Positions 4,812 through 29,551 of a stretch of 64,000 nucleotides of DNA are shown here, piece by piece. Below the pieces are notes generated by a model. It saw nothing but the letters and a program-made list of their open reading frames with translations. It was not told the DNA's origin and did no database searches. Source of the DNA: Spirochaetia bacterium (GTDB lineage Bacteria; Spirochaetota; Spirochaetia; UBA9216); contig OZ223264.1 in the NCBI GenBank assembly GCA_965140585.1, forward strand, positions 236,829 to 300,828, given 5' to 3'. Position 1 is the stretch's first letter; every line of letters starts with the position of its first letter. A program made the position numbers and the translations under genes.

Positions 4812-4823
4812 GAGATTTTAAAA

Positions 4824-6116: not shown

Positions 6117-6120
6117 ATGG

Positions 6121-6552: not shown

Positions 6553-6713
6553 AAAGCAGAAAATTTATTACATGGATTGTAACAACTCTACTTTGCATAA
6601 TCTCAGTTTTTATAACTAAGACTATATCTCCAGAATTGATAAACTGCTATACAGTGATAACAGTTTTATATATTGGAGGGAATACAGTTTCTAAGTATTT
6701 TGAGAAACGATAA
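6540..6713 (+). CDS. Holin-like small membrane protein (57 aa, two TM), unannotated in ORF track
   Basis: ATG at 6540 overlaps the end of the previous ORF. MEKLKSRKFITWIVTTLLCIISVFITKTISPELINCYTVITVLYIGGNTVSKYFEKR* has two TM helices and a basic C-terminus. Stop TAA at 6711-6713. Confidence 0.4.
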   Translation: MEKLKSRKFITWIVTTLLCIISVFITKTISPELINCYTVITVLYIGGNTVSKYFEKR

Positions 6714-6716
6714 TGT

Positions 6717-7160
6717 TTAGGGTATCTCGATTGATGTTGAAGAACTTTTTATCCAATTGTCAAGTTGCTCGATTACTGATTTAATTTCAGAGGGTTTTTT
6801 CTTCTTGATTGCACATTCCCATATTATTGCTATCCGCCAGCCTTTACTTTTTAAATTCCGAATATTTGTACTATCTCTTTCTACATTCTCTTGTAATTTT
6901 TTTTGCCAAAATTCTGTTCTGGTTTTTGGTAGTACAAAAAGAGGGCAGTTGTGCATATGCCAAAAGCAACCGTGAACAAAAATGACTACTTTATGTTTGG
7001 TTAATACAATATCAGGTTTACCGGGTAATTTTTTTGAATGTAGAGAATATCGATATCCAGAAGCAAATAAACCTTTTCGAATTACAAGTTCAGGTTTTGT
7101 ATTTTTAGCTTTAATACCACTCATCATTTTTGAACGAGTGGCAGGCGATACAATATCCAT
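6717..7160 (-). CDS. vsr: Very short patch repair endonuclease Vsr
   Basis: Classic Vsr motifs: TRSKMMSGIKAKNTKPE, LPGKPDIV, IFVHGCFWHMHNC, FWQKKLQENVERD, GWRIAIIWECA. Confidence 0.9.
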   Translation of the reverse strand: MDIVSPATRSKMMSGIKAKNTKPELVIRKGLFASGYRYSLHSKKLPGKPDIVLTKHKVVIFVHGCFWHMHNCPLFVLPKTRTEFWQKKLQENVERDSTNIRNLKSKGWRIAIIWECAIKKKKPSEIKSVIEQLDNWIKSSSTSIEIP

Positions 7161-8407: not shown

Positions 8408-8419
8408 GAAATCCCCTCC

Positions 8420-8458
8420 CTGGGAACATATATTGCATTATGCACTATTTATTCCCAG
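8420..8458. promoter_or_regulatory. Inverted repeat CTGGGAA-N25-TTCCCAG containing a CCTGG site in the MTase upstream region (putative operator)
   Basis: Read directly: CTGGGAA at 8420-8426 and TTCCCAG at 8452-8458, in the 120-bp gap between the R and M genes. Confidence 0.3.
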
Positions 8459-8527
8459 ATGAACAGGTTTATTTTGAGTTAATTCCTCAGAAATGTCAAT
8501 TATTATAAAGATTATATATGAATGGAC

Positions 8528-9718
8528 TTATTTCTGCTTTCTATCCCTTAATCTTTCTGTTCTTGAATATAGTTGAATGAGTTTTTCTTCTTTAACCCTA
8601 AAGCAGGTTCCATGATTTCGTTTAGTATGCATCCTAATTTCCATCATAACATCTCCTGATTCAATAAGCTGGATAAACTCCTTTATTGAGGGGCCTGAAT
8701 AATAGGTTAGCTCTACATAATGAAATTCTTCATTCTTATCTTTACCTCTATTTTCGGCACCGATATACGCACTTTCTGTAAGCTTTTCATTTAGTCTAAA
8801 TTGAATGGTCGTAAAATCATATTTTCCTATAGGAGTGTTATTAAAACATAGATATACGTTTTCAGTTTCATTATCTACAGAAAGACTTAGATTGTGGGTA
8901 TTAATGTTAATGGTCGGTGTTGAATACAACGCTTGACGTTGGTTTTCAGCATCAAAATAACCATACCTCTCAAGTCTCTCATTTTGATTTTTGGAGCCAT
9001 CAATCCATTCCGGTTCTTTGAGAAATAAATTCATTTTTTCTTTAGATTGATTTTGTTTTAACCTGAAGCATTTCAGCTCAATACCCTTGAAGTCTGGTCC
9101 TGAAGAATTATTCTCTTCTATACCCATTAAAGATTCAAATGTGTATCCTACTCCTGTACTTCCAGAACGAAGTGTTTTGACATAACCCATTTCTTTAATT
9201 TTATCAAATTCCTCTAACAGTATATCGATGCCATTATTTCGCTGTACTGGTTGAATTGATAAGTGCCAATCTAAATCTAAAAAGAAAGAACCTTGTAAAT
9301 TTGATAAATTTAGTTCAGAAAGTAATTCGGAATAGTAGATATGGTCAGGCTCAAGAATATGGATTTCATAAGTTCTTTTATAATCTTTTCTTCTTCCTAC
9401 AATTATAAGAGTATGTTCAGGTACAGAATTGACTGATGTCTTTAGGCGCGTTATTCGTCTCTCAGGATACCGATGGTAATGTTTATAATTACCATCCTTA
9501 ACTTCAATTGTTCCTGTGTCATTCCAAAGATAGCTAATTTGTTCTGTATAATTTATTGATACATTCGGGATAAAGTTGGTAATTGCAGGAAAAAGTCTAT
9601 ATGCTTCAACCGGGATAAGAACGCCATGTCTACCAGAATCATCATTTTTAGTTAATATCTTACAGAGGATACCATCTACATTTTCATAATTGATAAGAAT
9701 TTTTGATAATACAGACAT
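8528..9718 (-). CDS. Type II restriction endonuclease, EcoRII-like (N-terminal B3-like effector domain)
   Basis: 396 aa (EcoRII is 404 aa). N-terminal LTKNDDSGRHGVLIPVEAYRLFP resembles the EcoRII N-domain L-S/T-x-N-D-x-G...P...LFP motif. Lies directly upstream of dcm-vsr, which is CCWGG context. Confidence 0.55.
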   Translation of the reverse strand: MSVLSKILINYENVDGILCKILTKNDDSGRHGVLIPVEAYRLFPAITNFIPNVSINYTEQISYLWNDTGTIEVKDGNYKHYHRYPERRITRLKTSVNSVPEHTLIIVGRRKDYKRTYEIHILEPDHIYYSELLSELNLSNLQGSFFLDLDWHLSIQPVQRNNGIDILLEEFDKIKEMGYVKTLRSGSTGVGYTFESLMGIEENNSSGPDFKGIELKCFRLKQNQSKEKMNLFLKEPEWIDGSKNQNERLERYGYFDAENQRQALYSTPTININTHNLSLSVDNETENVYLCFNNTPIGKYDFTTIQFRLNEKLTESAYIGAENRGKDKNEEFHYVELTYYSGPSIKEFIQLIESGDVMMEIRMHTKRNHGTCFRVKEEKLIQLYSRTERLRDRKQK

Positions 9719-9793
9719 AATAAGTCAGTTTAGATGCAATCTGATTCCATGTCATGCAAAAAAATCAATTTTGTTAACTCTTCAGAACTGTCT

Positions 9794-9813
9794 ATTGAGC
9801 CAATTGGCTCAAT
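9794..9813. repeat. 20-bp perfect palindrome ATTGAGCCAATTGGCTCAAT
   Basis: Self-complementary. Shares the 14-bp core GAGCCAATTGGCTC with the palindrome at 10466-10485. Confidence 0.8.
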
Positions 9814-9911
9814 ATATCTATAAAAGCGCTCCCCGGTATAAAAAGGGCCGTGTACATCCCAAATTCCACCCAGTACTATGCTTCCAAGATTAACTCAAGG
9901 AGGTACAAACT

Positions 9912-10241
9912 ATCGAAGATTGGGAAGTTGTCTTCTCATATTCAAGAGAAGATGCAAAGCGTGATGGGGTATTAAAAGACGTAACTTACATTGCTAAAGA
10001 GTGTGGGTTCAAGCTTGATACTGTCATTACAGAGACCTTGTGGCACCTCATAGAAGGTGAAGAAGGTGTAAGGCCATTACTTTTTGATTTGTTGCTGAGA
10101 ATCAAGATGGCAAAGAAAGACAGTTCTATTCTTGTTTATGATTACAAGTGTAGAAAAGGCATGATTAAGGTCAGGTCAGAAGTCGGACCTGGCGATGATG
10201 CGTATCCGGTTCTAACAATCGGAACAATTTATGATTTCTAA
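9912..10241 (+). CDS. Hypothetical protein, open frame 9894-10241 with strong SD but no canonical start (track calls TTG at 10038)
   Basis: AAGGAGG at 9897-9903. Frame is open from 9894, but the first ATG/GTG/TTG is at 10038. Weak resemblance to a serine-recombinase catalytic domain (EEGVRPLLFDLLLRIKMAKKDSSILVYDYKCRKG). Confidence 0.25.
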   Translation: MEDWEVVFSYSREDAKRDGVLKDVTYIAKECGFKLDTVITETLWHLIEGEEGVRPLLFDLLLRIKMAKKDSSILVYDYKCRKGMIKVRSEVGPGDDAYPVLTIGTIYDF

Positions 10242-10249
10242 GGAGTGAA

Positions 10250-10462
10250 ATGATGAGTGTAATGACTAAATTGATTGAAGTAGAAGCAATGGAAGAAAAC
10301 GATGTTTATTCTCAGTTTAAGACTGGTAAGAATAATGTAAAGAAGGTGCTAAAAGTCCTGCTATTTGATGAGTTGAAAGATGAAATGGAGAAAGAAGATA
10401 AGCCAATTAGGCAACGTAAGCCTCAAAAGAAAGAAAAGCCGGTTGAGCCGGAAAGAACTTAA
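10250..10462 (+). CDS. Small lysine/glutamate-rich hypothetical protein
   Basis: ORF with SD 'aaggagtg' upstream, followed immediately by a terminator. Confidence 0.35.
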   Translation: MMSVMTKLIEVEAMEENDVYSQFKTGKNNVKKVLKVLLFDELKDEMEKEDKPIRQRKPQKKEKPVEPERT

Positions 10463-10465
10463 ATT

Positions 10466-10490
10466 AAGGAGCCAATTGGCTCCTTTTTTT
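10466..10490 (+). terminator. Rho-independent terminator (20-bp perfect palindrome AAGGAGCCAATTGGCTCCTT plus T7)
   Basis: Perfect stem followed by TTTTTTT. Confidence 0.75.
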
Positions 10491-10557
10491 TAGGAAAATT
10501 TATTGGTCAGTGGCTTTTAGAGGGTGTAATATAGAATAAACTAAAAAAGGATAAAAG

Positions 10558-11178
10558 ATGAAAAAGTCGATTTTTATTACAATTACGATTCTTACAATAA
10601 TACAGTTAATTTTCTCCTGTGATAATTTGGCAGGAGTTAACCCTGAAGATATAACTTCAGATGGATCAGATTCTACTTCAGACGATGGAAGTGATAGTTC
10701 AGAAAGTGAAGTAATTGCAAAGAGCATGAAAGCATATGATGCAAACGGTTCTTTTTTAGGTTATTGTACTTATGCTTCAGGTTACTTTTTATTTATGTAT
10801 TCTCAGAATGGATATTTTTACAGTATAAATTGGGATGGTTCGTTCACAGACGGAGGATTGTATTACACAGGGCAAAATCTAACAGGCACTGCTTTTTATG
10901 CGTACTTAGATTCTTATGCCATTAAAGCAAAAACTGTTTTTTCTGTTAATAATGTTTTGTATACCTATGTAGATTCAAATAGTGATAGTTTGGCAGATAT
11001 AAATGCTTCAATCACACAGTATCAAAGTGTTTACAGTGGTGGAACTACAACTAACTATGAAACACCTTATGAATTAAGCACATTTGGCTATTCTGCCTTT
11101 TCTGTGCAAACAATAACCAAATCCACAGCAGGAATACCGAGTAGCATTACTACTCCTATTTCCTTAGTAAGTGAGTAG
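10558..11178 (+). CDS. Acidic Ser/Asp-rich lipoprotein
   Basis: Signal peptide MKKSIFITITILTIIQLIFSC with a lipobox-like IFSC. Low-complexity DGSDSTSDDGSDSSESE region. Confidence 0.5.
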   Translation: MKKSIFITITILTIIQLIFSCDNLAGVNPEDITSDGSDSTSDDGSDSSESEVIAKSMKAYDANGSFLGYCTYASGYFLFMYSQNGYFYSINWDGSFTDGGLYYTGQNLTGTAFYAYLDSYAIKAKTVFSVNNVLYTYVDSNSDSLADINASITQYQSVYSGGTTTNYETPYELSTFGYSAFSVQTITKSTAGIPSSITTPISLVSE

Positions 11179-11192
11179 AGCTTTAATAGATA

Positions 11193-11702
11193 ATGGAGCA
11201 GGAAATTGAGAATAATGAATTAGTAGAATATTTTAATAGTAAACTTATAAGGGGTCAGTATTCTAAATTATTTTTAGAACAGATAATAAAAATTGATTCA
11301 AACGAACCATTAGTTTTAGGAGCAACTGATTTCTCTGAGTTCCGGCTTTTTAATATTACTGAAACAATATTAGAGTTAGAAGGTGTGAACAGAACATCAA
11401 CAAAGAAAGAAAAACAAATGAGAGGGATATTGTCTCAATATTATCATAAGCATATTGAATATTGGTATTCGATAGATGAAATATTTAATAAGACTATTGC
11501 TAATGAAAACCTGATAAATGAAGCAATTAAGAAGGCGATTAAATATAAGAAAGATAATAATCGAAAAGAAGAAGTTGTGCAATTGTTACCACATTTTTTA
11601 GTAACTGATAGAATTTCTGAAGTATACAAAAATAGAAAAGTAACAGGGGAGTGGTTGGTGTACTATAAACATGAATTAGGTAATATATATATCTTACTTT
11701 AG
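11193..11702 (+). CDS. Hypothetical protein
   Basis: ORF only. AT-rich. Confidence 0.35.
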   Translation: MEQEIENNELVEYFNSKLIRGQYSKLFLEQIIKIDSNEPLVLGATDFSEFRLFNITETILELEGVNRTSTKKEKQMRGILSQYYHKHIEYWYSIDEIFNKTIANENLINEAIKKAIKYKKDNNRKEEVVQLLPHFLVTDRISEVYKNRKVTGEWLVYYKHELGNIYILL

Positions 11703-11741
11703 CTTCACATGCGGAAGATTATAAAGAAATATTAAAAAGAA

Positions 11742-12074
11742 TTAATAGTTGTGCCATAGAAATGGAAATGATTTCAACTTTTTAAAGAACTCAGTCCATG
11801 CATCCTTAACATTGTTTGACTCATCGTCGGGTATATTACTGTGAAAGAGTTCAATAGTCTGGTCACGAACAGAGTATACTACAATTGAAGGCTGGTCCCA
11901 TTCTTTAACATTGAAAGCTGAGACTAAAGTTTTGCCAGGTCTTTCAGTTATTGCTTTGATTGTAATGCTGAGAGGAAAGTTCTTTTTTACAAACTTGTCA
12001 TCAGTAAGATTTGCATATAGCTCTTTCATGTTGCTTTTAGGGAATTTACCGATTACTTTGATGGTTTTAGCCAT
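11742..12074 (-). CDS. Hypothetical protein (possible immunity-type small protein)
   Basis: ORF only. Confidence 0.35.
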   Translation of the reverse strand: MAKTIKVIGKFPKSNMKELYANLTDDKFVKKNFPLSITIKAITERPGKTLVSAFNVKEWDQPSIVVYSVRDQTIELFHSNIPDDESNNVKDAWTEFFKKLKSFPFLWHNY

Positions 12075-12202
12075 AAGAGATACTCCGAATTATTGTTTGT
12101 TTATTAGTATAACACGGTAGGAAAACACTGTTAAGACGAAAAAAGTAGTGTGGATGTCTAAATAAGTGTAATATAGTTATATCCGATGGAGCTGTATTTA
12201 AA

Positions 12203-13023
12203 ATGAAAAAAATTCCGATAAACGATCAAATTGCGTATTCTATTTCGAACTTAGTTGATGACTCTCAAGTAGGACGTAGAGACCCAAGCCATTATGAAAT
12301 AGAAACGTTGATTAACGAGTGCGCATTATCAAAATATGATCCAAACCAAATCGGGAAAGGCCCTGTTGGGAAGATGAAACGTATTCGTCATGTACTAATA
12401 GGTTCATTAGAAGAAGAAACAGAAAAAGCCGAGGCTTTTGCTTATGGAATTATAAGCTTAATACGTTCTTCTGGTGGATTCCGAGAATTATCTCCCAATT
12501 TTATTGGATGGGAGAATATCCATAATTTGCAAACGGTTTTAAAAGATGAAGGTATTTTGTTGGGTGATGATGGTACCTTAAGTTATAAGATTTTAGATGA
12601 TTTATCAAATTCAGAGAAGACCGATGTTTTATATTCATATATTAAAAGAGCCAGGAAAGGTAGTGAAGATGCTGCTCTGATTGTGGGAACTAGTAAAGAT
12701 TTGATTGAAGCAGTATCAGCTCATGTGATTTTTTAAAATGTGGAACATATCCTACAACTGCAAATTTCCCAACATTACTGGGACAGGCATTTGTTATGTT
12801 GGGCATGGCTACCTCTTATGATGAGGAAAAGAAAGATGAACATCCAAGAAAAACGATTGAACGAAACATGTATGATTTAGCTTGTTCTATTAATAAATTA
12901 CGGAATAAACAAGGAACTGGTCACGGTAGACCTTTTCTTCCAGATTTGTCAAAGACAGAGGCTATTGAAGCTGTACAAGTTATGGGGATTATTGCAGAGA
13001 AGATGTTAAATTGTTTGAGTTGA
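12203..13023 (+). pseudogene. Abortive-infection protein with Abi_C domain, interrupted by -1 frame break at T6A4 tract
   Basis: Downstream piece carries the Abi_C signature LRNKQGTGHG. Upstream ORF ends at a TAA inside GATTTTTTAAAATG (12727-12740). The second frame is open from 12709. A single extra T would fuse the two parts into one roughly 270-aa ORF. Confidence 0.55.
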
Positions 13024-13064
13024 GAAGATTGTGATATTGAACTAAGTGCTTATTTATTGGGGGT

Positions 13065-13547
13065 ATGTTGAAAAAACAAAAGTTTTCAAAAGCTGAAATT
13101 TCTGAACTTGTTATGTATAAGCTCACAGAAGGGGCAGATTTTATTGTTGAGAAGTTATTAGAAATTAATGAGAAATACCAAATTAGTGAAGATGATAATC
13201 AAACTCTTTCAGCTGTGCTGGCTTTTGTTTTTTTCTGTTATGATTTTTCCTTCTTCTCGGTCTATCAAGATTCTCAAGAATCAATAGATATTAGAGCTCA
13301 AATCAAAGAAAATATGCTCAAATTTCCCATGATTTCTCAAGAAAAATTAGAGTGGTATGTTAGAAATCATGGACACCTTTTAAGGAAACATAAAAATCAT
13401 ACAAATAGCGATTGGATAGTTGAATTAGTTTCTGTAACTTTTAATTGGCGGGACGATAATGTTTCAGGACTTTTTCTTTTAGTTTTCTTGCAGACCTATG
13501 AATTCGTTGAAGAAATATCAAAAAAAATTAAAATAGTTCTAAGATAA
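13065..13547 (+). CDS. Hypothetical protein
   Basis: ORF only. Confidence 0.35.
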   Translation: MLKKQKFSKAEISELVMYKLTEGADFIVEKLLEINEKYQISEDDNQTLSAVLAFVFFCYDFSFFSVYQDSQESIDIRAQIKENMLKFPMISQEKLEWYVRNHGHLLRKHKNHTNSDWIVELVSVTFNWRDDNVSGLFLLVFLQTYEFVEEISKKIKIVLR

Positions 13548-13678
13548 TATACCTGATGCCGAGGTAAAGTAGTGACGTGAGTGGATTGGGCCAAGAGGCT
13601 CAGTTAAGAAATGTATGATTATTTATATTGTACTATAAAAATTGCCGTCATAATGACGGCTAGAATATCTATTTCTAT

Positions 13679-14773
13679 TTATTGCAAAGACATTAATTCC
13701 TCAAGAATTATTTTACTAAAATCTGGTGGAAGTCTACTTGAATGTATCATGTATTCTGTAAATAGAAATGCAAATTTTGTTGCTTGTCTATTAGTTTTTG
13801 TAAATAACTTTAAACACTTTCTTTCTTTATCATTTGATAGAATTGACCAAGCTAATTCACGGAGTATTAATGGCGAGCTATTAATTTCAAATGGAGCCTC
13901 TAATGCATGTCTGATTAATTCGATGAATTTCCCCCAATGTGGCAATGATAATTGTTCACCTAAATCAGAACTTGGTCTTGCATTTTTTAATGCCTCTTCG
14001 TAAAGATTATTCTTATATTCATAGGTTTCCCGTCCGCCATATAGTAACATTAACAATGCATCAGAAAGATCTTCTTTTTTGTCTGGATGAAGATAAAGAG
14101 AAAAAATTTTATTAACAATCTCTGCTATAGAAATGAGAAATAAACTAGAATAATCTAATACCAAAGAGAGATGCTCTTCTTTTTTAGGATCTAATTCTGG
14201 TGCGTTTTTTCTTAATAGAATGAGAGATTTACGACATGATTCCCCAGCATCTTTTATCATCCAAAAACTCGAACGAGAGAAACTAATTAATTCGGATAAT
14301 GTTGGATATTTTTTTCCAATATCAAAATATTTTTCCCATAAATCAATTTTACCTAAATTTGCGTCTGTCAAGGTTAAAGCTTTTTGTGAAGTCGCATCAC
14401 AGAATACCTTAAAATCATGCTCGGTCAATAAAGTAACACCTATTTGACCAGCTGAGATGCGATGATCTTTCTCGATGTTGTCTTTTCGCAAGATGCAAAT
14501 GCCCATCTCGGCAGACATGTATTTCATTATTCCATTTAACCATAAAGCTCTGTTAATTGGACTTTGCCCCTTTAAAGTTTTGCAATCAATTATAATTTTT
14601 TTATAGCTGATGAAATCACATGGAATATATGCTAGAACGTCCAAGTCGGTAATTTTAATATTTTTATTCTGTATGTCTAGGGGACTACAGACATCTACCT
14701 CAAGTTGGGGGACCCAACCTTTTGATACAGCATACTTCAATGCTCTTTGTTTTTGTTCACGGTCTTGCATCAT
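13679..14773 (-). CDS. Unknown 364-aa protein with a PD-(D/E)xK nuclease-like motif, second gene of the operon
   Basis: ITDLDVLAYIPCDF...KKIIIDCKT matches the D...(D/E)xK arrangement. C-terminal part is helical. Confidence 0.45.
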   Translation of the reverse strand: MMQDREQKQRALKYAVSKGWVPQLEVDVCSPLDIQNKNIKITDLDVLAYIPCDFISYKKIIIDCKTLKGQSPINRALWLNGIMKYMSAEMGICILRKDNIEKDHRISAGQIGVTLLTEHDFKVFCDATSQKALTLTDANLGKIDLWEKYFDIGKKYPTLSELISFSRSSFWMIKDAGESCRKSLILLRKNAPELDPKKEEHLSLVLDYSSLFLISIAEIVNKIFSLYLHPDKKEDLSDALLMLLYGGRETYEYKNNLYEEALKNARPSSDLGEQLSLPHWGKFIELIRHALEAPFEINSSPLILRELAWSILSNDKERKCLKLFTKTNRQATKFAFLFTEYMIHSSRLPPDFSKIILEELMSLQ

Positions 14774-16065
14774 AGTTTAGCTCCGTACATGATTGAATCT
14801 AGTTCATATTGCTTTTCTTCAGACAATGGGATTTCTCCTCTTTTCCTTAGGTTTGTTGCGCTTATTGTTGACTCTACATATTCCTTGCTCTGTTCAAACA
14901 TTTTACATGCCTCTGGGTTAATTTCTAATCCTGAGACAGCCTCGTTAGAAACAAGTGATAATGCAATGCCCAATGCTTCCATATTTTCTTCTGTGTCTAT
15001 GATGTGAAGTTGAGAATACCCGTGAGGAAGTGGCTCTAAATAGCCAACTCGGCATTGCACTAGGTTTTTATATTGTTGAGTAGCCTCAGTTGTGCTACTT
15101 ATTGTCTTTCTATCTCGTAAAGCTCTAATAATCGCTGCCGGTTGTCTTATCCTATGTGCCTTCGGTAAGAATTGCCCTTGTCGAACAGAAGAAACAATTG
15201 CCATTGCTCGTTCATATATTTCACGTTTTGTTGGCGGTAGGTGTTTTGATGAAGGCGCTGGGGTAAACAGGAAGTAGTTTTTACCACTATGATCAGTTTC
15301 AATAGAGGGTGGTTTCACTATGCCAAATTGTGATAGGTTTAATAATAATTTGAGTTCATCATCTGTGATGTGGTGTCCGTTTATTTCTTTAGTTTCTTCG
15401 ACTATTGATAAAGGTATACCCTGAACTGTTTTAATTAGACTTAAAATATTGCTGACAGATTTAGAGCCACTACTAGCAACTGCATCTGTAAATATATCAA
15501 TGTTCTCAGAGAAATAGTGTGGACTGAGTAATATATCTTTTCCTCGGGCTCGGCGATTAATTATAAAGTTTCCTTTTGTCCCAATATCTACTGCTCTATC
15601 AAAGAGAACTTTTTCAGGGCTAAGCTTCTGAAATAGAGAATCACGATTTTCTGGAGATTGAGCAAGGCGTTTCACCATCTCAATACATAACTGTTCTGAT
15701 TCGTTAAATGACCCTTCAGACATAGAATAATCACCGATTACATGGTATAGATCTTCATAATAAGGAACATTAGGTAAAATCCCCTTAATAGTTCTTCCTT
15801 CTTGCCTGATCTTTACAAATTCAATATCACCTAAAATTTCTACTATCCCCTTAATCGATGTTGTTGGTATTGATAAATAGTGATTTGATACCATTTTCAG
15901 AATTTCAAAGTCAATAAAAGGAAGACCTCTGATATGTAATGCTAATCGTACTGCCATGCCTATTTCAACTAAAAATCCGAACTCTGGAACATCAATTGCT
16001 CCTAAATTTAATTGAATTTCATGGCATCTTGCAGCTATTTCAGATGATTCACCTTTTGAACTCAT
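14770..16065 (-). CDS. Unknown 431-aa protein, first gene of a two-gene operon
   Basis: Long ORF with no family recognisable by eye and no Walker motifs. Its stop overlaps the start of the downstream gene. Confidence 0.5.
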   Translation of the reverse strand: MSSKGESSEIAARCHEIQLNLGAIDVPEFGFLVEIGMAVRLALHIRGLPFIDFEILKMVSNHYLSIPTTSIKGIVEILGDIEFVKIRQEGRTIKGILPNVPYYEDLYHVIGDYSMSEGSFNESEQLCIEMVKRLAQSPENRDSLFQKLSPEKVLFDRAVDIGTKGNFIINRRARGKDILLSPHYFSENIDIFTDAVASSGSKSVSNILSLIKTVQGIPLSIVEETKEINGHHITDDELKLLLNLSQFGIVKPPSIETDHSGKNYFLFTPAPSSKHLPPTKREIYERAMAIVSSVRQGQFLPKAHRIRQPAAIIRALRDRKTISSTTEATQQYKNLVQCRVGYLEPLPHGYSQLHIIDTEENMEALGIALSLVSNEAVSGLEINPEACKMFEQSKEYVESTISATNLRKRGEIPLSEEKQYELDSIMYGAKL

Positions 16066-16195
16066 TTTTAAATCCTCCTATAAGGACCAATGTATAAATC
16101 TAAGAGTTATATGATAATGCTTCTAGACTAAGTATTCAAATATAAATTTTATTCTTTGAAAAAGAATTAAACTTCATTCAAAAAAAGTATAATGT

Positions 16196-16287
16196 ATTAA
16201 ACCTTAGGTAACCCGGAATAACGTGAATTGGGACAGGTGACTCAGTTGAAAATGTTGATGTGCAGTAATCGAGTTTGTGATATTGTT
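16196..16287. repeat. 92-bp direct repeat, copy 1
   Basis: Identical over the 3' 60 bp (TTGGGACAGGTGACTCAGTTGAAAATGTTGATGTGCAGTAATCGAGTTTGTGATATTGTT) to copy 2. About 6 mismatches in the first 32 bp. Confidence 0.9.
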
Positions 16288-16293
16288 TTCGTT

Positions 16294-16689
16294 ATGCAAA
16301 AAGTGTTAAAGAGGTTAATCCCTTTACTTATAATGCTAATCTTCTTATTTGTTGGATGTGAAAAAGTTGAACATTTTGAAATTTCTGATGTGATTATCTT
16401 AACGACATCTGATAATGCACCAATAATGTTTAATTATATAATAGATTATAAAGTTTATGGGTATAACGAGCGTGAGAGAATTAATAAGCTTGAATGGAAA
16501 ATTGAATCACTAATTATTCCCGAATTTGTTGATTTTATAAATGAGCAAGTATCGGGATTTTCTAAATCTGAAATGATTACTAGTAATAAGATCCTGAATG
16601 GCATGAATACAAAAGTTGAAAGTCATTTAAATAAAATAGCGTCTGAATATCATTTCAGGGTTAAAAAAGTTACTATAACTGTAAAGTAA
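16294..16689 (+). CDS. Lipoprotein
   Basis: MQKVLKRLIPLLIMLIFLFVGC lipobox (FVGC). ATG lies immediately after repeat copy 1. The track ORF 16228 begins at a TTG inside the repeat. Confidence 0.5.
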   Translation: MQKVLKRLIPLLIMLIFLFVGCEKVEHFEISDVIILTTSDNAPIMFNYIIDYKVYGYNERERINKLEWKIESLIIPEFVDFINEQVSGFSKSEMITSNKILNGMNTKVESHLNKIASEYHFRVKKVTITVK

Positions 16690-16766
16690 AAAATTTATTG
16701 AATTCTGTTTTAATTTGATATAGGGAAACAATTTATACGTGCTCATAAATTTCGTCCCCTAACCGG

Positions 16767-16858
16767 ATTAAACCTTAGGCAACCTGGAACTGTGTGAATT
16801 GGGACAGGTGACTCAGTTGAAAATGTTGATGTGCAGTAATCGAGTTTGTGATATTGTT
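16767..16858. repeat. 92-bp direct repeat, copy 2 (third partial copy at 18262-18286)
   Basis: Followed by a degenerate copy of the lipoprotein start (VLKRGFVFLICYY versus MQKVLKRLIPLLIM). Confidence 0.9.
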
Positions 16859-17037
16859 GATTGATAGAGGATTGAAAGTGTTAAAAAGAGGTTTCGTATT
16901 TTTAATCTGTTATTATATTAATAAACTCCATAATTTTGTTTTTAGGATTAATGGAGATGAATTAGAAGTAATATCCCCAACTATGATAATGTTACGATTT
17001 AAAAATTTAAGAATGATAGAAAGTGAAGAGGACGTAG

Positions 17038-17799
17038 ATGCAACTGAGTCAATCTCAAGGGCAATATTACTACAATGCCAGATGGTATGACCCAAGCATA
17101 GGCCGAATCACCACCGAAGACCCCATGCGTGACGGCCTAAACTGGTACGCTTATGCTAATAATAATCCGTTGAAGTTTGTTGACCCGAGCGGGTTGGCTA
17201 ACTTGACATCATATACACCTGATAATCCCTATTACTATTATAGCTCCTCAAAAGTGACTGATACGGTTATTAAATCATTATCGCTTATTCCTTATATAGG
17301 TGTAGGTGCAGGAATTGCAGAGTCCATCTCAAACAAATTTGGTTTATTTGAGATTATTGATTTAAATAAACAAAGCCAAATTGATAAAGCCTCTGGAGGA
17401 TTATCGTCTGCTGGAACTGTAGCAGGAATTATGAATAAATTGGGGGAAGGTTTTTTTAGTAATGGTTTTTCAAAAGTTTTAGGCGTTTTATCCACAATCG
17501 GAACAATAGTGGGACTTGCAGATTATGCTAATAGTTTCTTATCAGAACCCTCATTAGAAACGGAGAAAGCAGTAGATGCCTCAGGGGTCGTTCAGGGGAA
17601 ACATTTAGACACATTAATCCCATTTGCAAAAGAAGTAGAAGAATTAATGTCTGGATATTTAGATAGTGGCGATGTTGAAATAATTGAACGAGATGATGGT
17701 ACTGACACATTGCAATGGAATTCGCAGGCATCTAAAGATGCATTCAATTCAGTTGTAGAAGATTATCAACGAAATGAAGTGGAAAGAACCGATGAATAA
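17038..17799 (+). CDS. Orphan Rhs/YD-repeat C-terminal toxin fragment (core-end DPxGL plus Gly-zipper membrane-type toxin domain)
   Basis: YYYNARWYDPSIGRITTEDPMRDGLNWYAYANNNPLKFVDPSGL is the canonical end of the Rhs core. Only 12 residues precede it. The C-terminal domain is rich in GxxxG/AxxxG segments (IPYIGVGAGIAESI, GGLSSAGTVAGIMNKLGEG, VLGVLSTIGTIVGLA). Confidence 0.7.
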   Translation: MQLSQSQGQYYYNARWYDPSIGRITTEDPMRDGLNWYAYANNNPLKFVDPSGLANLTSYTPDNPYYYYSSSKVTDTVIKSLSLIPYIGVGAGIAESISNKFGLFEIIDLNKQSQIDKASGGLSSAGTVAGIMNKLGEGFFSNGFSKVLGVLSTIGTIVGLADYANSFLSEPSLETEKAVDASGVVQGKHLDTLIPFAKEVEELMSGYLDSGDVEIIERDDGTDTLQWNSQASKDAFNSVVEDYQRNEVERTDE

Positions 17800-17965
17800 T
17801 ATAATTATTCTATTTACAGTATTAGCTGTATTATTCTCTAATTTTAGTATTTGGTTATATTCGAAACAAGCAAAATTTTCGAAGATTATTAAGATTATTT
17901 TGTTTATAGTAGCAGATGGTATTTGGGCTACTTTGTTTGTAATAAAGATAATAGAAATTTTATAA
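17774..17965 (+). CDS. Small two-TM membrane protein, candidate immunity protein
   Basis: 63 aa. Overlaps the 3' end of the toxin ORF. Two hydrophobic helices. Confidence 0.4.
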   Translation: MKWKEPMNNIIILFTVLAVLFSNFSIWLYSKQAKFSKIIKIILFIVADGIWATLFVIKIIEIL

Positions 17966-18000
17966 TTCTATATAAAGACGTTTTAAACAATTATATATGA

Positions 18001-18240
18001 TTCCATTGGAAGTAGTCCCGGAGAACCCGGACTACTCAACAGAGTCTATTCCGATAAATAGAGTTTGTTCGAAATTTCGGAAATGATTCATCGTCCTACC
18101 AATTTCGTCTAACGCGCGTTAGACGAACCCTTTAGGGCGGTGAGGGGAACTGCAGAAGCTCCGCTTCCGTCGGCAGATTTTGTAACAACGGGCTGTTGTA
18201 CGAAGTCTGCCGGTTAACTATATAAACCACCTTACAGTTT
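18001..18240. other. GC-rich non-coding stretch with three strong hairpins
   Basis: Includes the hairpin 18012-18035, the 24-bp perfect palindrome TTCGTCTAACGCGCGTTAGACGAA (18104-18127) and an inverted repeat CGGCAGATT...AAGTCTGCCGG (18171-18213). No ORF. Confidence 0.5.
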
Positions 18241-18341
18241 TAAGAATATTACACAATCCATTCCCCTCTAACGGATTAAACTTCAGACAAACAATAGTGT
18301 ACTGAAATACCCATATATAATATTATGAAATAAGAGTTCCA

Positions 18342-18770
18342 ATTAATGTATTAATTGAGGGAAACCTGGTCAGAGATCCGGTTTTAAATGAAACCCCAAA
18401 GGGGACTAAAATATGCAATTTCACAATTGCAACCAACAGATACTTTAAGCAGGATGAGGAATATCAAAAAGAAGTTTCCTTCATCGATGTGGAAGCCTGG
18501 TCCAGACTTGGGGTTGTTTGTGATAATGGACTTCAAAAGGGACAGGGGGCCAGAGTTGTAGGTCGTCTGAAACAGGACAGGTGGAATGATAAGGAGGGCG
18601 CTTTTAAATCAAGACTGAAGATTGTTGCTGAACATGTGGAATTTAAGCCTGTATTCTCGAAGGAAGAGGCCCAGGCTCGTCAGGAGGCTGAGCAGGTAGA
18701 TCTATCCCAGGAGGCCGTTGCGAATGTCGTAACGCCGGAACTGGACCCTGTCGCGGATTCAGTGATTTAA
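18342..18770 (+). CDS. ssb: Single-stranded DNA-binding protein
   Basis: INVLIEGNLVRDPVLNETPKGTKICNFTIATNRY...VEAWSRLG...VVGRLKQDRWNDKEG aligns to the SSB OB-fold. There is no in-frame ATG/GTG/TTG before 18489; ATT at 18342 after AAGAG is the best candidate start. Confidence 0.7.
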   Translation: MNVLIEGNLVRDPVLNETPKGTKICNFTIATNRYFKQDEEYQKEVSFIDVEAWSRLGVVCDNGLQKGQGARVVGRLKQDRWNDKEGAFKSRLKIVAEHVEFKPVFSKEEAQARQEAEQVDLSQEAVANVVTPELDPVADSVI

Positions 18771-18790
18771 ATATTTTAATATGTGATGCG

Positions 18791-18832
18791 GCGGAAGCCC
18801 GGAATATCCCGGCTTCCGCTTACCCTTTTTTT
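18791..18832 (+). terminator. Rho-independent terminator after ssb
   Basis: GCGGAAGCCCGG-AATAT-CCCGGCTTCCGC followed by a T-run. Confidence 0.6.
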
Positions 18833-18879
18833 CAAAAATACCGGTGGAAATATAGGCTTCAGCAGGGCATAATCAGTTT

Positions 18880-19824
18880 ATGATGCGTGAAGATTTGCAG
18901 GAAATAATGAATAAAGTTGATCTGTTTTATAAAAACGGCAGGAGCCGTGATGCTGAACCGCTTCTGCAAAAAAGTGCAGAGGATTTTGAACAAAAGTATG
19001 GCAGGAATGAAGGCTATGCTGCTATAGTGAGCGAACTTGGAGCCCTGTACAGGGAATTAAGTGATTACAGCAGGGCGGAATACTGTTTTTCAGAGGCCGG
19101 AGAAACGTTGAAAAGCTGTGCGGGTGAAAATAATCTGGAATATGCCACTATTATTAATAATACTGCCGGGCTTTACCGGCTCATGGGGAGACATGATGAA
19201 GCTGAAGATCTTTTCCGGCAGACTATCAGTCTGTATGAGAAAACAATAGGCCGGGATCATTACCTGTATGCCAGCAGTCTTAATAATCTTGGCCTTCTGT
19301 ACCAAGATATGAAACGTTTTGATGAGGCTGTGATTCTGCATGAGGAAGCTCTTGAGATAATCAGGAGGCATGAGGAACACAGAATTGCGTATGCAACAAG
19401 TCTTAACAACCTGTCCGGTGTGTACAGGCAGCTGAACAGACTTAAAGAGGCTGAAACTTCTGTTGTCGAAGCATTGCAGTGCTGCCGCAGTATTCTTGGT
19501 CCGGAACATCCGCTATATGCTGCAGGTCTTAATACTTATGCCGCCCTTTATTTTGAATTAAATAATTTTAAAAAGGCGGAAGAGTGCTACATAGAGGCTG
19601 CAGGAATCTGCCGCAGACATTACGGAAAAGAGCAGTATGAATATCTTTCAGTTGTAGAAAACCTGTGCAGGCTGTATGAGAGAACCGGAGATGATGAGAA
19701 AGCTCTGCCTTTGCTGCAGGAGCTTGTTTCCGGGTATGGAAAGATATTAGGTGGGGAACACAGGAAAACCCGGGCTGCTGCTGCAGCTCTGGCAGCGCTT
19801 GAAAAAGAGTCTGAAACAAAATAA
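18880..19824 (+). CDS. Tetratricopeptide (TPR) repeat protein
   Basis: Repeated LNNLGLLYQDMKRFDEA-type TPR units. Confidence 0.8.
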   Translation: MMREDLQEIMNKVDLFYKNGRSRDAEPLLQKSAEDFEQKYGRNEGYAAIVSELGALYRELSDYSRAEYCFSEAGETLKSCAGENNLEYATIINNTAGLYRLMGRHDEAEDLFRQTISLYEKTIGRDHYLYASSLNNLGLLYQDMKRFDEAVILHEEALEIIRRHEEHRIAYATSLNNLSGVYRQLNRLKEAETSVVEALQCCRSILGPEHPLYAAGLNTYAALYFELNNFKKAEECYIEAAGICRRHYGKEQYEYLSVVENLCRLYERTGDDEKALPLLQELVSGYGKILGGEHRKTRAAAAALAALEKESETK

Positions 19825-20044
19825 TCCTGCGGGGAAAAACTCCCCGAAAAACTACAGCGGGGAAATTTTCCCCATGTTTGAACTCCAGCTTTATAAAATT
19901 GTTATCAAATCTCATGAAATTAAGGTGTTTTAGAGCAAAAATTCCCTTTTTTTGCTGAAATCATTTAATTAAACAGTCTATATAATTTTTTTCTTGGCAC
20001 GCTAATAGCTTTAATGCATATAACCAAGATTAAAGGAGTATGCT

Positions 20045-20644
20045 ATGAAAAAGGCATTAGTGGTTTTAATTATGTTAAGTGTGGCTGCAGGTGTTTTTGC
20101 AACCGGAGCACAGGAGGCTGATGAGGATGGAATTGTCAGACTCGACCCCAGGGATGTCGCCAGAAACAGTGTGCTGGACGACTATGAAAAAGTTTCAGTA
20201 AAGGGCACAATAAAGTTTGAGAGTGTGGTGCCTGAACTGTCTGCCGGGGGAAAGGAATATGCTCTTACCGCACCCGGAGCGAATATGCTTGCATCTTATC
20301 TTACAGAAGGTCAGAAGGTAACAGTCAACGGTTATATTGTTGATGAAGATTCCTTTTACGGTCCGCGCGGGATGGGGCCTGGAATGATGAATTTTTTAAA
20401 CCCGGAAGCTTTGAACAACGACATAACACTGTTGGTTGAGTCTGTCGAGATTGATGGACAGCTTTACATGCTGCCATGGGTTGAAGATGGTTTCGGAACA
20501 ATGATGCAGGGAAGAAACTTTTCAGATGATTCCAGATTTGGAAATATGCGCGGCGGAACCAGTTCCAGAGGCGGTTTCTCAAGAAACAACAGCGGTTCAT
20601 ATAACCGACCGTACATGAACTCTGATTTCTGCCCCGTTTACTGA
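20045..20644 (+). CDS. Secreted hypothetical protein
   Basis: Signal peptide MKKALVVLIMLSVAAGVFATGAQEA. RBS AAAGGAG upstream. Confidence 0.5.
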   Translation: MKKALVVLIMLSVAAGVFATGAQEADEDGIVRLDPRDVARNSVLDDYEKVSVKGTIKFESVVPELSAGGKEYALTAPGANMLASYLTEGQKVTVNGYIVDEDSFYGPRGMGPGMMNFLNPEALNNDITLLVESVEIDGQLYMLPWVEDGFGTMMQGRNFSDDSRFGNMRGGTSSRGGFSRNNSGSYNRPYMNSDFCPVY

Positions 20645-20662
20645 TTAAATAGGAAAATCTGA

Positions 20663-20698
20663 AGAAAGCCGGCAATTAGAATTGCTGGCTTTCTTTTA
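20663..20698 (+). terminator. Rho-independent terminator
   Basis: AAAGCCGGCAATT...AATTGCTGGCTTT stem followed by a T-run. Confidence 0.6.
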
Positions 20699-20712
20699 TC
20701 CTTTATAGTATT

Positions 20713-22068
20713 GTGATAATAATGATGAACCGAAAGGGTCTAATTGCCATACCTTTTACCGCGCTTATCCTGCTTTTTACTGTTCTTATATTTCTTCTTA
20801 TCGATCAGAAACAGAACAGTAATGCTATTATGCTCGAGTACCGGGCCTCAAGAACAATAAACCTGCTGATTGATTTATATTTTCAGGAAGATATGCCCAG
20901 TCCGGATGAGATCGACAGTGATATCATCGGTTTTGGATTATATGGAATTGATGGAAAGCTGCTCTACCATTATGGAACCGCGCCTCAGGATTTTACAGAT
21001 CTGAACCGGCATGCCGATGTCTACCTCAAAGATTATCTTCCGGCACCCCAGCTTAGAAATATTGATCTTCAGGGCGGTAGGGTTCTGTTTAATGGCAATG
21101 AAAGTATTGCTGTGATCAGACCCCTGATTGGAGATCAGACAAACATGCCTATGGGTTCGATGATGCAGCAGATGCCTCCAGCCATAACTGAGCGTGCCCG
21201 TGAGTTTCGCCGTCAGGGCGGTGGCATGCCTCAAATGGGAATGAATTCCCAGTTCAGAACTGCGGGTGCGGGAGTGTATCTCGAATACCGTAACGGAGCC
21301 TATTTAAAGCAGCGGAATCTTAATATAGCAATTGTCTCGTTGTCTCTTGCTGTTTTTGCAGTATCGGTGCTTTTAATTATTTCGTTATACCTTAAAAATA
21401 GAAAACTGGAACTTAAATCGGAAAAGGACCGGCAGCTCATTCAGCTTGGTGAGGCTGCCAGAGTTCTTGCTCATGAAATCAGGAATCCGCTGGGAGTACT
21501 GAAGATACAGCGGGATCTGCTTGTAAAAAAGCTGGGTGAGGGCTACTCGGGAAATCTCGATGTGATAGACCGTGAACTGAAGCGGCTTAACACTCTGGTG
21601 GAGAAAGTCGGTGACTTTCTGAGAAATCCTGCAGGTACAGGGGCTGATATTGATGTTGGAAGCTATCTGAACGGTTTATACGGTGACAGGGACAGCATCA
21701 ATCTGAATGGAATAAACCCCGGAGAATGTTTTATAAGTTTCGATCCTGAACGCTTAAGAACGGTGTTTGACAATGTAATTAACAACGCTGTAGAAAGCGG
21801 GGGAACAGCTGAACTTGATATTTTTTCTTCCGCCGATTCCGTTGCTGTTGAAATAAAAGATTACGGACGCGGATTTTCTTCTGATAATCTGTCGATGGTT
21901 TTTGAACCTTTTTTTACAACCAAGACCAGCGGAATGGGGCTTGGACTTTCTGTTGTTAAGAAGTTTATGGAAGCTTCAGGAGGCCGGGTTATGATTGGTA
22001 ATCATGAAGCAGGCGGATATGTGCGGCTTGAATTCCGCAGGGGACATGGTCCGGGGAGTACAGGATGA
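20713..22068 (+). CDS. Sensor histidine kinase (NtrB/AtoS-like, two TM)
   Basis: H-box LAHEIRNPLGVL. G boxes DYGRGF and GMGLGLSVVKKF. Confidence 0.85.
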   Translation: MIIMMNRKGLIAIPFTALILLFTVLIFLLIDQKQNSNAIMLEYRASRTINLLIDLYFQEDMPSPDEIDSDIIGFGLYGIDGKLLYHYGTAPQDFTDLNRHADVYLKDYLPAPQLRNIDLQGGRVLFNGNESIAVIRPLIGDQTNMPMGSMMQQMPPAITERAREFRRQGGGMPQMGMNSQFRTAGAGVYLEYRNGAYLKQRNLNIAIVSLSLAVFAVSVLLIISLYLKNRKLELKSEKDRQLIQLGEAARVLAHEIRNPLGVLKIQRDLLVKKLGEGYSGNLDVIDRELKRLNTLVEKVGDFLRNPAGTGADIDVGSYLNGLYGDRDSINLNGINPGECFISFDPERLRTVFDNVINNAVESGGTAELDIFSSADSVAVEIKDYGRGFSSDNLSMVFEPFFTTKTSGMGLGLSVVKKFMEASGGRVMIGNHEAGGYVRLEFRRGHGPGSTG

Positions 22069-23378
22069 GGGTTCTTGTTGCTGATGATGAAAAGGGGTTC
22101 AGGGAATCCATTGCCGAATACCTTGAACTTGAAGATATTGAGGTGGATGTAGCTGAAAACGGACTCTCTGCAATCAGACGGCTTGAAGATGAAGAATTCG
22201 ATACTGTTGTTCTTGACTTGAAGATGCCCGGAGCAGATGGGCTGGAAGTCCTGAAATGGATGAAGGAGAATACTCCTGGTATACCGGCGCTGATGATATC
22301 AGCATTCGGTGAGGTTTCCGATGCTGTAGCCGCAATCAAGCTTGGTGCTGAAGACTATCTGGTAAAGCCCTTTGAAACTGAAGAACTGCTACTCAAAATA
22401 CGAAAAGCCGGTGAAAAACGCAAGCTTCAGAGAGAAGTAGAATATCTGAGGAGTACCGGTGCCGTAAGGTTTAATCTGAAAAGCGGGAGTCCGGCTATGA
22501 AGCCGGTAATGGAGCTTGTTCATAAGGCGGCACCCTCTCCGGCAAATATCCTTATTACCGGTGAAAGCGGTACAGGAAAAGAGGTTTTTGCCAGATACAT
22601 ACACAGCCTTTCCGGCCGGTCTTCTCAGCCCTTTGTTGCTGTTAATGTGGGAGGTGTTCCCGAAAGTCTTCTTGAGAGTGAGCTTTTCGGTTATGAGAAA
22701 GGAGCTTTTACCGGCGCGGACAGGATGAAAAGCGGACTATTTGAGACAGCATCAGGCGGAACTCTTTTTCTTGATGAAATAGGCGATATGCCCCTCCATT
22801 TGCAGGTAAAGCTGCTTCGGGCCATTCAGGAAAGAAAGATCCAGAGGCTGGGTGCTGTAAGGCAGATAAATCTTGATGTGCGTATAATTGCAGCTACAAA
22901 TCGGGATCTTGAAAAATCTGTACAGGAAGGCCTTTTCCGTGAAGATCTTTTTTACAGGCTGAATGTTGTGCGTGTTCATCTGCCGCCTTTGAGAGAAAGA
23001 AAAGAGGATATTCCTGTTTTATGCGCCGGGTTTCTTAAGAATATCAATCATAAGATGGGCCGCAGTATTGAAGGACTTTCATCGGAGGCTATTGAGCTTT
23101 TAAATTCCTACCGTTTTCCGGGTAATATCAGGGAGCTTGAGAATATGCTGGAAAGGGCGGTTATTCTTGCCGGCGGAACTGAACTGACACCGGAGGACTT
23201 CAGTATTGCACCTTCGTCTGTGAAACATAAAGCTCAGGGGACTTTGAAAGATATAGAACGTCTGGCAATAATTGATTCACTTGCCAGATGGGAAGGCAGA
23301 AAAACCAGAGTCGCAGAAGAACTTGGTATCGATCGAAAGACTCTTTTCAATAAGATAAAAGAATACGGTCTGGAATAA
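22065..23378 (+). CDS. Sigma-54-dependent response regulator (NtrC family)
   Basis: REC domain (VLVADDE...D...K), AAA+ domain (GESGTGKEVFARYIH), GAFTGA motif, C-terminal Fis-type HTH. ATGA overlap with the kinase gene. Confidence 0.9.
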   Translation: MRVLVADDEKGFRESIAEYLELEDIEVDVAENGLSAIRRLEDEEFDTVVLDLKMPGADGLEVLKWMKENTPGIPALMISAFGEVSDAVAAIKLGAEDYLVKPFETEELLLKIRKAGEKRKLQREVEYLRSTGAVRFNLKSGSPAMKPVMELVHKAAPSPANILITGESGTGKEVFARYIHSLSGRSSQPFVAVNVGGVPESLLESELFGYEKGAFTGADRMKSGLFETASGGTLFLDEIGDMPLHLQVKLLRAIQERKIQRLGAVRQINLDVRIIAATNRDLEKSVQEGLFREDLFYRLNVVRVHLPPLRERKEDIPVLCAGFLKNINHKMGRSIEGLSSEAIELLNSYRFPGNIRELENMLERAVILAGGTELTPEDFSIAPSSVKHKAQGTLKDIERLAIIDSLARWEGRKTRVAEELGIDRKTLFNKIKEYGLE

Positions 23379-23445
23379 AAACAAAATTTGGATTACAGCC
23401 TCAGCTTTATTATTATATAATCATACATATATAGGAGATTCGTAA

Positions 23446-24789: not shown

Positions 24790-24795
24790 AAACTA

Positions 24796-26301: not shown

Positions 26302-26348
26302 TCTGCTTAAATTATCTACAATCAGGAACCCGATATCAATTTATTCAA

Positions 26349-28291: not shown

Positions 28292-28312
28292 TTCCTCCTG
28301 TAAATAGAGTAT

Positions 28313-29539: not shown

Positions 29540-29551
29540 TTCTTCCTCCTT

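Follow-up and report, generated by a model that had tools for sequence, protein, structure and literature searches.

A phage moron, as Juhala, Hendrix and colleagues are said to have described it in 2000, is an extra gene of a prophage that comes with its own promoter and terminator. Toxin modules of the orphan rhs-CT/rhsI type have been described in detail (Poole et al. 2011, PMC3150448; Koskiniemi et al. 2014, PMC3967940), and most orphan C-terminal (CT) fragments are described as lacking initiation signals (PMC3150448, PMC3967940). Rhs toxins of Salmonella have been found to be expressed internally, in a manner resembling type II toxin-antitoxin systems (PMC7043789). Here we describe a locus of a Spirochaetia bacterium (assembly GCA_965140585.1, contig OZ223264.1), analyzed within a stretch of 64,000 nucleotides (nt) that we refer to as the window. 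In this locus, two copies of a 92-nt direct repeat are followed by two different units. Copy 1 heads the gene of a small lipoprotein, and copy 2 heads a small open reading frame (ORF) together with a stand-alone Rhs-CT/immunity cassette. We favor a local segmental duplication in which about 125 nt, a 5' leader together with the first few codons, were copied and would now head two unrelated modules and serve them as expression signals. We put the probability of this reading at roughly 0.5.

The repeat was identified by repeat search as two copies that match at 86 of 92 bases (93%) with a spacing of 571 nt.

Copy 1 of the 92-nt repeat: 16196-16287, + strand; with gaps, homology runs to 16316; heads the lipoprotein ORF.
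Copy 2 of the 92-nt repeat: 16767-16858, + strand; with gaps, homology runs to 16893; the leader frame stops directly after it (..CDIVD and two stop codons).

No other direct repeat in positions 1-20000 comes close to it in length, and no third full copy is present in the 64-kb window. A 38-mer taken from the repeat occurs at just two sites in the 64 kb, even with up to three mismatches allowed, where none is expected by chance. The source is evidently a metagenome-type assembly, which lends some substance to the suspicion that the similarity is a product of chance or an assembly artefact. However, the chance expectation of the 38-mer stands against this, and the six differences between the copies, together with their different flanks, are unlike a collapsed or duplicated assembly graph. 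We regard such an origin as barely credible.

The differences between the two copies are unevenly placed. All six mismatches sit in the first 27 nt (clustering P = 4e-4), and they are followed by a 3' block that is identical in both copies (16223-16287 and 16794-16858). The 92-bp direct repeats that the initial annotation had placed around a lipoprotein gene are real, and the pattern that it described, a diverged 5' part and an identical 3' part, stands as well, although the identical part measures 65 nt and not 60. Its proposal that the leader and first codons of the lipoprotein gene were duplicated is borne out by the repeat search and by gapped alignment, which extends the homology by about 30 nt beyond the 92 nt, to 16316 and 16893. 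The extended homology ends in GTGTTAAAGAGG in copy 1 and GTGTTAAAAAGAGG in copy 2, both of which encode VLKR, and the spacer between the 92-nt block and the VLKR codons is 15 nt in copy 1 and 19 nt in copy 2. Within the 571-nt period, alignment is limited to the first 121-127 nt and does not extend over the whole length of the two units. Because 65 nt are identical while the flanks on both sides have diverged, the perfect block suggests a recent copy, gene conversion between older paralogous leaders, or functional constraint.

Each copy leads into a small ORF.

Small lipoprotein-type ORF: 16294-16689, + strand; 131 amino acids (aa), MQKVLKRLIPLLIMLIFLFVGC..., taken from the ORF list; signal peptide and lipobox read from the sequence.
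Small ORF after copy 2: 16878-17090, + strand; 70 aa, VLKRGFVFLICYY...ILLQCQMV; start signal AGAGGA-6 nt-GTG (16866-16880); overlaps the start of the Rhs-CT gene out of frame.

The public annotation of the lipoprotein starts at TTG 16228, within the repeat, and gives a protein of 153 aa; the leader frame of copy 1 is open from this TTG into the lipoprotein. The ATG at 16294 appears to have no Shine-Dalgarno sequence. Against 5.8 billion proteins, the lipoprotein matched solely itself, in the 153-aa form, and no homologue was found; a weak match to Band_7 lies below the cut-off. In copy 2, a net indel of +4 nt and two stop codons break the leader frame just past the identical block. It is uncertain whether the 70-aa ORF that follows is a real gene.

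These reading frames bear on a different explanation, namely that the repeat is a nonfunctional relic. The 5' part of the lipoprotein gene, coding from TTG 16228, would have been duplicated in tandem and would persist as a decaying fragment in front of the Rhs cassette, which is essentially the view of the initial annotation minus the mobility. The open leader frame of copy 1, in frame with the lipoprotein and used as the annotated start, agrees with it, as do the indel and the two stops that break the frame of copy 2 after the block and the VLKR codons that follow in both copies. A decaying fragment should carry scattered changes, yet 65 nt are perfect between diverged flanks. Copy 2 is moreover followed by a well-formed AGAGGA-6 nt-GTG and by a cassette in need of expression signals, and no resemblance to the lipoprotein is seen past VLKR. 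We consider this explanation possible, though on the unlikely side. In a BLASTP comparison of the 70-aa ORF with the lipoprotein, no similarity was found past the four residues coded by the repeated DNA. The degenerate lipoprotein paralogue that had been read after copy 2 is thus not supported, the VLKR residues being all that the two have in common. The initial annotation correctly gave the peptides of this region and correctly noted that ORF 16848/16878-17090 overlaps ORF 17038-17799 out of frame.

The ORF overlapped by the 70-aa frame is the first gene of the Rhs-CT/immunity module.

Stand-alone Rhs-CT gene: 17038-17799, + strand; Rhs core end at residues 4-53, including NPLKFVDPSGL; C-terminal domain without a family match.
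Putative immunity protein: 17774-17965, + strand; hydrophobic 63-aa ORF, so assigned from its position only; overlaps the end of the Rhs-CT gene; no family match.

Residues 4-53 of the Rhs-CT protein match TIGR03696 (Rhs_assc_core) with 57.5 bits, against a cut-off of 32.5, and the ends of Rhs/TcC shells in the PDB align to residues 4-57. The gene has its own ATG with a ribosome-binding site (GAGGA-6 nt-ATG) and an in-frame TAG immediately upstream. This ATG is also present in L001, L002 and L004, three loci of other Spirochaetia assemblies that hold short Rhs-CT genes with the same N-terminus. Matches to the 15 homologues of the protein are limited to the core end, the N-terminal 14-35% of the query, and the C-terminal domain is accordingly variable. 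At the DNA level, 17058-17196 is 83-89% identical in five other loci, and identity stops at about 17196. Taken together, the conserved parts of the cassette run from about 50 nt before the Rhs-CT ATG through the 3' hairpin, and the leader is not among them. No full-length rhs gene was found in the 64-kb window, where tblastn with the core end returned this one site and no ORF of Rhs size lies nearby. A DNA pattern of the conserved Rhs core end gave no matches in viral and metagenome contigs.

In L001, L002 and L004, the Rhs-CT gene is preceded by a small ORF of its own (MRHSWRKKIE...), which overlaps the Rhs-CT start and ends in ILLQCQMV. The similarity between the 70-aa ORF of the window and the upstream ORF of L001 is confined to this overlapped C-terminus. 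Since the same overlap recurs in all three loci, we take it to be a property of the cassette family and not an insertion scar, and the shared ILLQCQMV ending to be forced by the conserved core-end DNA beneath it. The claim that a paralogue had been disrupted by Rhs insertion is therefore not supported. The toxin cassette, proposed to have been inserted between repeat copies, lies between copy 2 and a short third copy, which is described below, and not between the two 92-nt copies.

As judged from the sequence, the repeat would most likely function as portable expression signals. At its end, the identical block has a candidate promoter, TTGATG-18 nt-TGnGATATT. In copy 1, transcription from it would begin about 3 nt upstream of the lipoprotein ATG at 16294, and since this ATG appears to lack a Shine-Dalgarno sequence, it would be read from a leaderless mRNA. 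In copy 2, the start would lie just before the AGAGGA-GTG at 16866-16880. Integron cassettes generally have no promoter of their own, and a cassette of this kind would depend on the promoter of the integron that holds it. Since the relatives of the Rhs cassette sit in integrons, as detailed below, a copied leader would be useful to this cassette, to which it would supply expression signals outside an integron.

Several observations weigh against the duplicated-leader reading. The promoter match is weak, agreeing at 8 of 12 positions plus the TG of an extended -10 element, and it lies under the threshold of the promoter scan; promoter-like sites are no more frequent in the region than in shuffled sequence. 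Because the leader frame is open from TTG 16228, which is the public start, the block may be coding sequence and not a promoter. There are only two identical copies, which give no basis for conservation or covariation. No relative carrying the locus was found, and L006 (the only close relative, with a colinear Spirochaetia locus described below) lacks the whole island. Finally, a single simple duplication does not predict the mosaic of arms seen among four short motifs at the junctions of the locus.

A regulatory role of another kind was also weighed, in which the two units downstream would be under the control of the repeat, acting as a cis-regulatory RNA or through a leader peptide that it encodes (an upstream ORF, MKMLMCSNRVCDIV..). 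In keeping with a leader peptide, the identical block contains AGGTGA, 5 nt upstream of TTG 16246 and 11 nt upstream of ATG 16252, and the short ORF of copy 2 stops 1 nt before the next ribosome-binding site. For a regulatory RNA, however, the folding of both strands of both copies does not surpass that of shuffled sequence (z-scores +0.3 to +1.7), no match for the repeat was found in Rfam, and there are no homologues on which conservation could be examined. We regard this role as very improbable.

Within the window and the collections searched, the duplicated leader appears to be confined to this locus. Exact searches with 24-25-mers from both halves of the repeat gave no matches in IMG/VR, and a 25-mer gave none in GTDB representative genomes or in JGI metagenomes. 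In a blastn search of 16100-18347 against phage and plasmid sets, the Rhs core end alone was matched, and the repeat was not. An apparent resemblance between the leader and the region upstream of an Rhs fragment in another locus, L019, was rejected, as its score of 21 falls short of a background that reaches 30-33. The initial annotation had raised the possibility that the repeats are sites of cassette exchange, to be looked for beside other genes; the repeat is absent from the remainder of the window and from all collections searched. The initial annotation had named such absence, together with an uninterrupted, colinear locus in all relatives, as the sign of a simple local duplication without mobility; the repeat is indeed absent from the sequences searched, and the only close relative lacks the whole island. 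A mobile or widespread role of the repeat as a recombination site has no outside support, and the duplication is local.

Besides the long repeat, four related junction motifs, X1 to X4, share the core ATTAAAC(C)TT at 16161, 16196, 16767 and 18275; they lie where modules meet, and the Rhs-CT/immunity pair has one at either side.

X1, a fourth partial copy: 16161-16194, + strand; core ATTAAACTTCA and an X4-like right arm; TATAAT at 16188-16193.
X2: start of copy 1 (16196), + strand; core with the 92-nt repeat as its right arm.
X3: 16752-16782, + strand; left arm TCGTCCCCTAACCGG, core ATTAAACCTTAGG; overlaps the 5' end of copy 2.
X4, the third partial copy (18262-18286) with its flanks: 18258-18304, + strand; left arm X3-like, right arm X1-like.

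The significance of X4 was assessed by comparing 18258-18304 with the whole window on both strands and with 2000 dinucleotide shuffles. Apart from itself, it matches 16166-16194 (score 28) and 16756-16782 (score 27) best, with 23 as the next score; scores of 27 and 28 were each reached by 4 of the 2000 shuffles. In these alignments, X1 pairs with 18275-18304 (score 28) and X3 with 18265-18290 (score 27). The partial copy that had been reported at 18262-18286 is thus real, and the locus holds a fourth, previously unlisted one at 16161-16194. The arms are combined in different ways. A left arm, TCCCCT(C)TAAC(C)GG, is common to X3 and X4, and by fuzzy search the left arm of X3 is present only at X3 and at 18258-18281. 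X2 and X3 have the 92-nt repeat itself as their long right arm, and X1 and X4 have a different right arm in common.

Such a mosaic suggests another origin for the locus, in which the X motifs would be att-like sites of site-specific recombination and the locus a two-cassette array built by successive insertions. The units would be a lipoprotein cassette (16196-16766) and an Rhs-CT/immunity cassette with a structured 3' element (16767-18281), with exchange at ATTAAAC(C)TT. In favor of it, X1 to X4 show the four arm combinations expected after site-specific insertion, and no non-self match in the window outranks the two short similarities, which about 4 in 2000 shuffles reach. The spacing of the motifs does not fit so well, since a simple attB x attP scheme would not be expected to leave X1 and X2 separated by only 30 nt. 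We hold this origin to be distinctly unlikely; the element at the end of the cassette, the relatives of the cassette, and direct tests of the motifs also bear on it.

The element at the 3' end of the cassette is as follows.

Conserved structured element: 18000-18260, or 18000-18290 (about 280 nt) in a wider delimitation, + strand; directly after the Rhs-CT/immunity pair; no match in Rfam.

On folding, it reaches z-scores of -6.5 (+ strand) and -6.1 (- strand), and its GC content is 0.45, compared with 0.21-0.29 in the flanks. Positions 18092-18217 are 77% identical to 5837-5951 of L019, likewise located after an Rhs-CT/immunity pair, and this conservation of a structured element at the 3' end of a cassette supports att-like sites. 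A hairpin at its 5' end (18006-18040) is common to L001, L002 (twice), L004 and L019, with tops that are paired differently. Compensatory changes affect 5 of its 16 pairs, and its G-U pairs favor an RNA of the + strand.

The relatives L001, L002 and L004 are of interest since their Rhs-CT cassettes, homologous to that of the window, are true integron cassettes, which likewise speaks for att-like sites. A canonical integron attC is present in every intergenic region of these loci, as defined by R'' (RYYYAAC), L'', L' and R' (GTTRRRY) boxes with paired arms. An alignment of ten attC from the three loci shows R'' (..TAAC), L'', L' and R' (GTTA..) boxes; 97.7% of its pair cells are paired, compared with 23-43% in slid controls, and six pairs are compensatory. 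A covariance model built from these ten recovers five further attC of L001 that were not used in building it (E 1e-9 to 1e-3). L001 has a tyrosine recombinase at one end, which scores at the cut-off of the "recombinase/integron integrase" model. In all three loci, the small ORF, the Rhs-CT gene and the immunity gene form one gene cassette, which starts at the G/TTATGCGAC attC crossover.

The observation of Rhs-CT/immunity pairs as integron cassettes refers to 1-20636 of L001, at 4331-4483 and 9613-9770 of L002, and at 11949-12123 of L004. At least 14 attC lie on the same strand over 17 kb of L001, beside the tyrosine recombinase. The cassettes of L001 also hold PIN/Phd and MazEF pairs, acetyltransferases, GmrSD and Mrr-like genes, and its attC at 9456-9769 is interrupted by a repeat of about 300 nt that recurs beside an IS3-family element.

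The window itself contains no such sites. By eye, X3 could be taken for the right-hand half of an attC (YCTAAC-CGGA..AAC-CTTAGGC versus GTGTAAC-CCTGGAAC-GTTA), a candidate that three tests rejected. A pattern scan of the island in which the locus lies found no canonical attC. With filters off, the best island match of the attC covariance model reached 12 bits (E 0.81) and consisted of the palindrome at 18104-18127 alone. Half-site attC hidden Markov models gave no match to X1-X4 even at E 2000. The motifs are not members of the integron attC family. The lack of a canonical attC by all three methods counts against att-like sites, as does the lack of a significant hairpin at 16700-16785. No recombinase, tyrosine recombinase or integron integrase was recognized among the island ORFs examined in 1-18347, the left part of the island lying outside the window, and the 431-aa protein encoded next to X1 is a winged-helix protein. 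The motif was also not found at the cassettes of the relatives, and the leader was found nowhere else searched.

A related proposal keeps the exchange but not the integron. An undescribed cassette system, using ATTAAAC(C)TT and the structured 3' element as its sites, would move small units, among them Rhs-CT/immunity pairs that related Spirochaetia carry as integron cassettes too, into prophage cargo, and the four sites would be the attB-, attL-, attP- and attR-like products of two successive insertions. We judge this to be slightly less probable again than att-like sites as such. On the duplicated-leader reading, the ATTAAAC(C)TT motifs are either leftovers of the events that assembled the array or more decayed copies of the 5' end of the leader.

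A low-GC, prophage-like island holds all repeats and X motifs within its last 2.2 kb, with a GC content of about 34% in positions 1-18000 of the window and about 44% in the remainder. Its boundary on the right was placed by comparison with a colinear locus and by the GC step.

Right island junction: 18325-18347, no strand assigned; inside the first codons of ssb.

The locus used for comparison, L006, is a metagenome-assembled genome of Spirochaetia with a TPR protein that is 91% identical, and it is colinear with 18348-29806 of the window at 88.5% DNA identity. To the left of this colinear stretch, L006 has unrelated DNA with an aminotransferase gene. Because colinearity stops there, we assign the DNA to the left of about 18347, including the repeats, the Rhs unit and the third copy, to the island. 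The ssb gene at 18325-18770 has no in-frame ATG, GTG or TTG before 18489, whereas L006 has GAGGAG and an ATG (L006 9455). The window ssb may start at a rare codon (ATA or ATT), may be driven by island sequence, or may be crippled. No tRNA, tmRNA or known RNA was found at the end of the island with ARAGORN and Rfam.

The prophage character of the island is seen in 149-6552, which encodes the C-terminus of a tape-measure protein, a large tail protein of 1184 aa and an XhlA-like gene; other genes of the lysis region are present in the left part as well. Restriction-modification genes come after the lysis region as cargo, along with an Abi-like gene in two pieces and a number of small genes that carry no annotation. 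The tail and lysis genes, the absence of the island from L006 and the GC step together place these accessory genes in a prophage, outside its virion and lysis modules. In another locus, L003, an Rhs-CT gene directly follows Mu-like tail and lysis genes. Close kinship between the prophage of the window and that of L003, which also ends in Rhs-CT, was considered and gained no support from the comparison.

Other features of the cargo are recorded here as observations in their own right. On the - strand, 6717-9718 holds a unit of a Vsr endonuclease, a Dcm-type cytosine methyltransferase and a type II restriction enzyme, and the pairing of Vsr with a methylase also adjoins Rhs-CT in L002. The palindrome GAGCCAATTGGCTC, which looks like a terminator-type hairpin, occurs twice (9797-9825 and 10469-10497), around two small ORFs (10038-10462). 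A single abortive-infection gene of Abi type, broken in two by a frame change, seems to underlie the ORFs at 12203-12736 and 12796-13023, and the latter ORF matches Abi_C (E 1e-11). Two adjacent unannotated genes of 364 and 431 aa occupy 13679-16065 on the - strand, the 431-aa gene adjoining X1.

More than 460 homologues of the 431-aa protein, about 50% identical to it, occur in distant phyla (Bacillus, Verrucomicrobiota, Rectinema), the closest at 58%. The protein itself has no match in Pfam, NCBIfam, PADLOC or PHROGs. No relatives of its gene were found in viral contigs, and its closest homologue led to no related island. The AlphaFold model (pLDDT 76) shows tandem winged-helix repeats, with RPC62/RPC3 as the best matches in the PDB. 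The protein was considered as a recombinase and rejected, as the model is of winged-helix type and matched no recombinase fold. The 364-aa and 431-aa genes may form an uncharacterized defense or regulatory pair.

If the leader was indeed duplicated as we propose, the locus would be an example of a prophage accessory gene that gains expression signals from the copied leader of a neighbor. It would also link three pools of mobile accessory DNA, namely Rhs toxin modules, integron cassettes and prophage cargo. Such an event would not surprise a specialist and opens no long-standing question. More unusual are the conserved 280-nt structured element, for which no family match was found, and the presence of Rhs-CT/immunity pairs as integron cassettes in Spirochaetia.

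Compared with the described systems, the locus combines features of several. Like integron cassettes, the window has small units on the same strand, a motif at each junction and a structured 3' element. In contrast to integron cassettes, its motifs fail every attC test, no integron integrase was recognized in the part of the island within the window, and the 5' ends of the two units have about 85-120 nt in common, something not normally seen in such cassettes. As in phage morons, a prophage ends, behind its tail and lysis genes, in small unrelated accessory genes with candidate signals of their own, and the base composition of the units differs from that of their neighbors. The window differs from a moron in having two adjacent units with the same leader and in that promoter and terminator are only predicted; the scan that put the candidate promoter below its threshold found no intrinsic terminator.

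The Rhs-CT gene resembles the orphan rhs-CT/rhsI modules in containing the last part of the Rhs core with DPxGL, a variable C-terminal domain and a small downstream ORF, and its core-end DNA is 83-89% identical between loci, as expected of a handle for homologous recombination. Unlike those modules, it has no full-length rhs gene within 64 kb, lies in prophage-like cargo, and has its own ATG and ribosome-binding site with a duplicated foreign leader in front. With the internally expressed Salmonella units (PMC7043789) it shares a toxin part of Rhs that could be expressed by itself, both transcribed and translated, from signals just upstream of the DPxGL region, along with an immunity gene, here a putative one. 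The promoter of those units lies within the rhs frame and is conserved across many Rhs genes, whereas the candidate promoter of the window lies in a local duplicated leader found nowhere else searched, and expression from it is predicted. In having its own start signals, the Rhs ORF of the window is closer to the Salmonella units than to the orphan modules. The feature as a whole is a new example of known events, a local duplication in prophage cargo together with a stand-alone Rhs-CT module.

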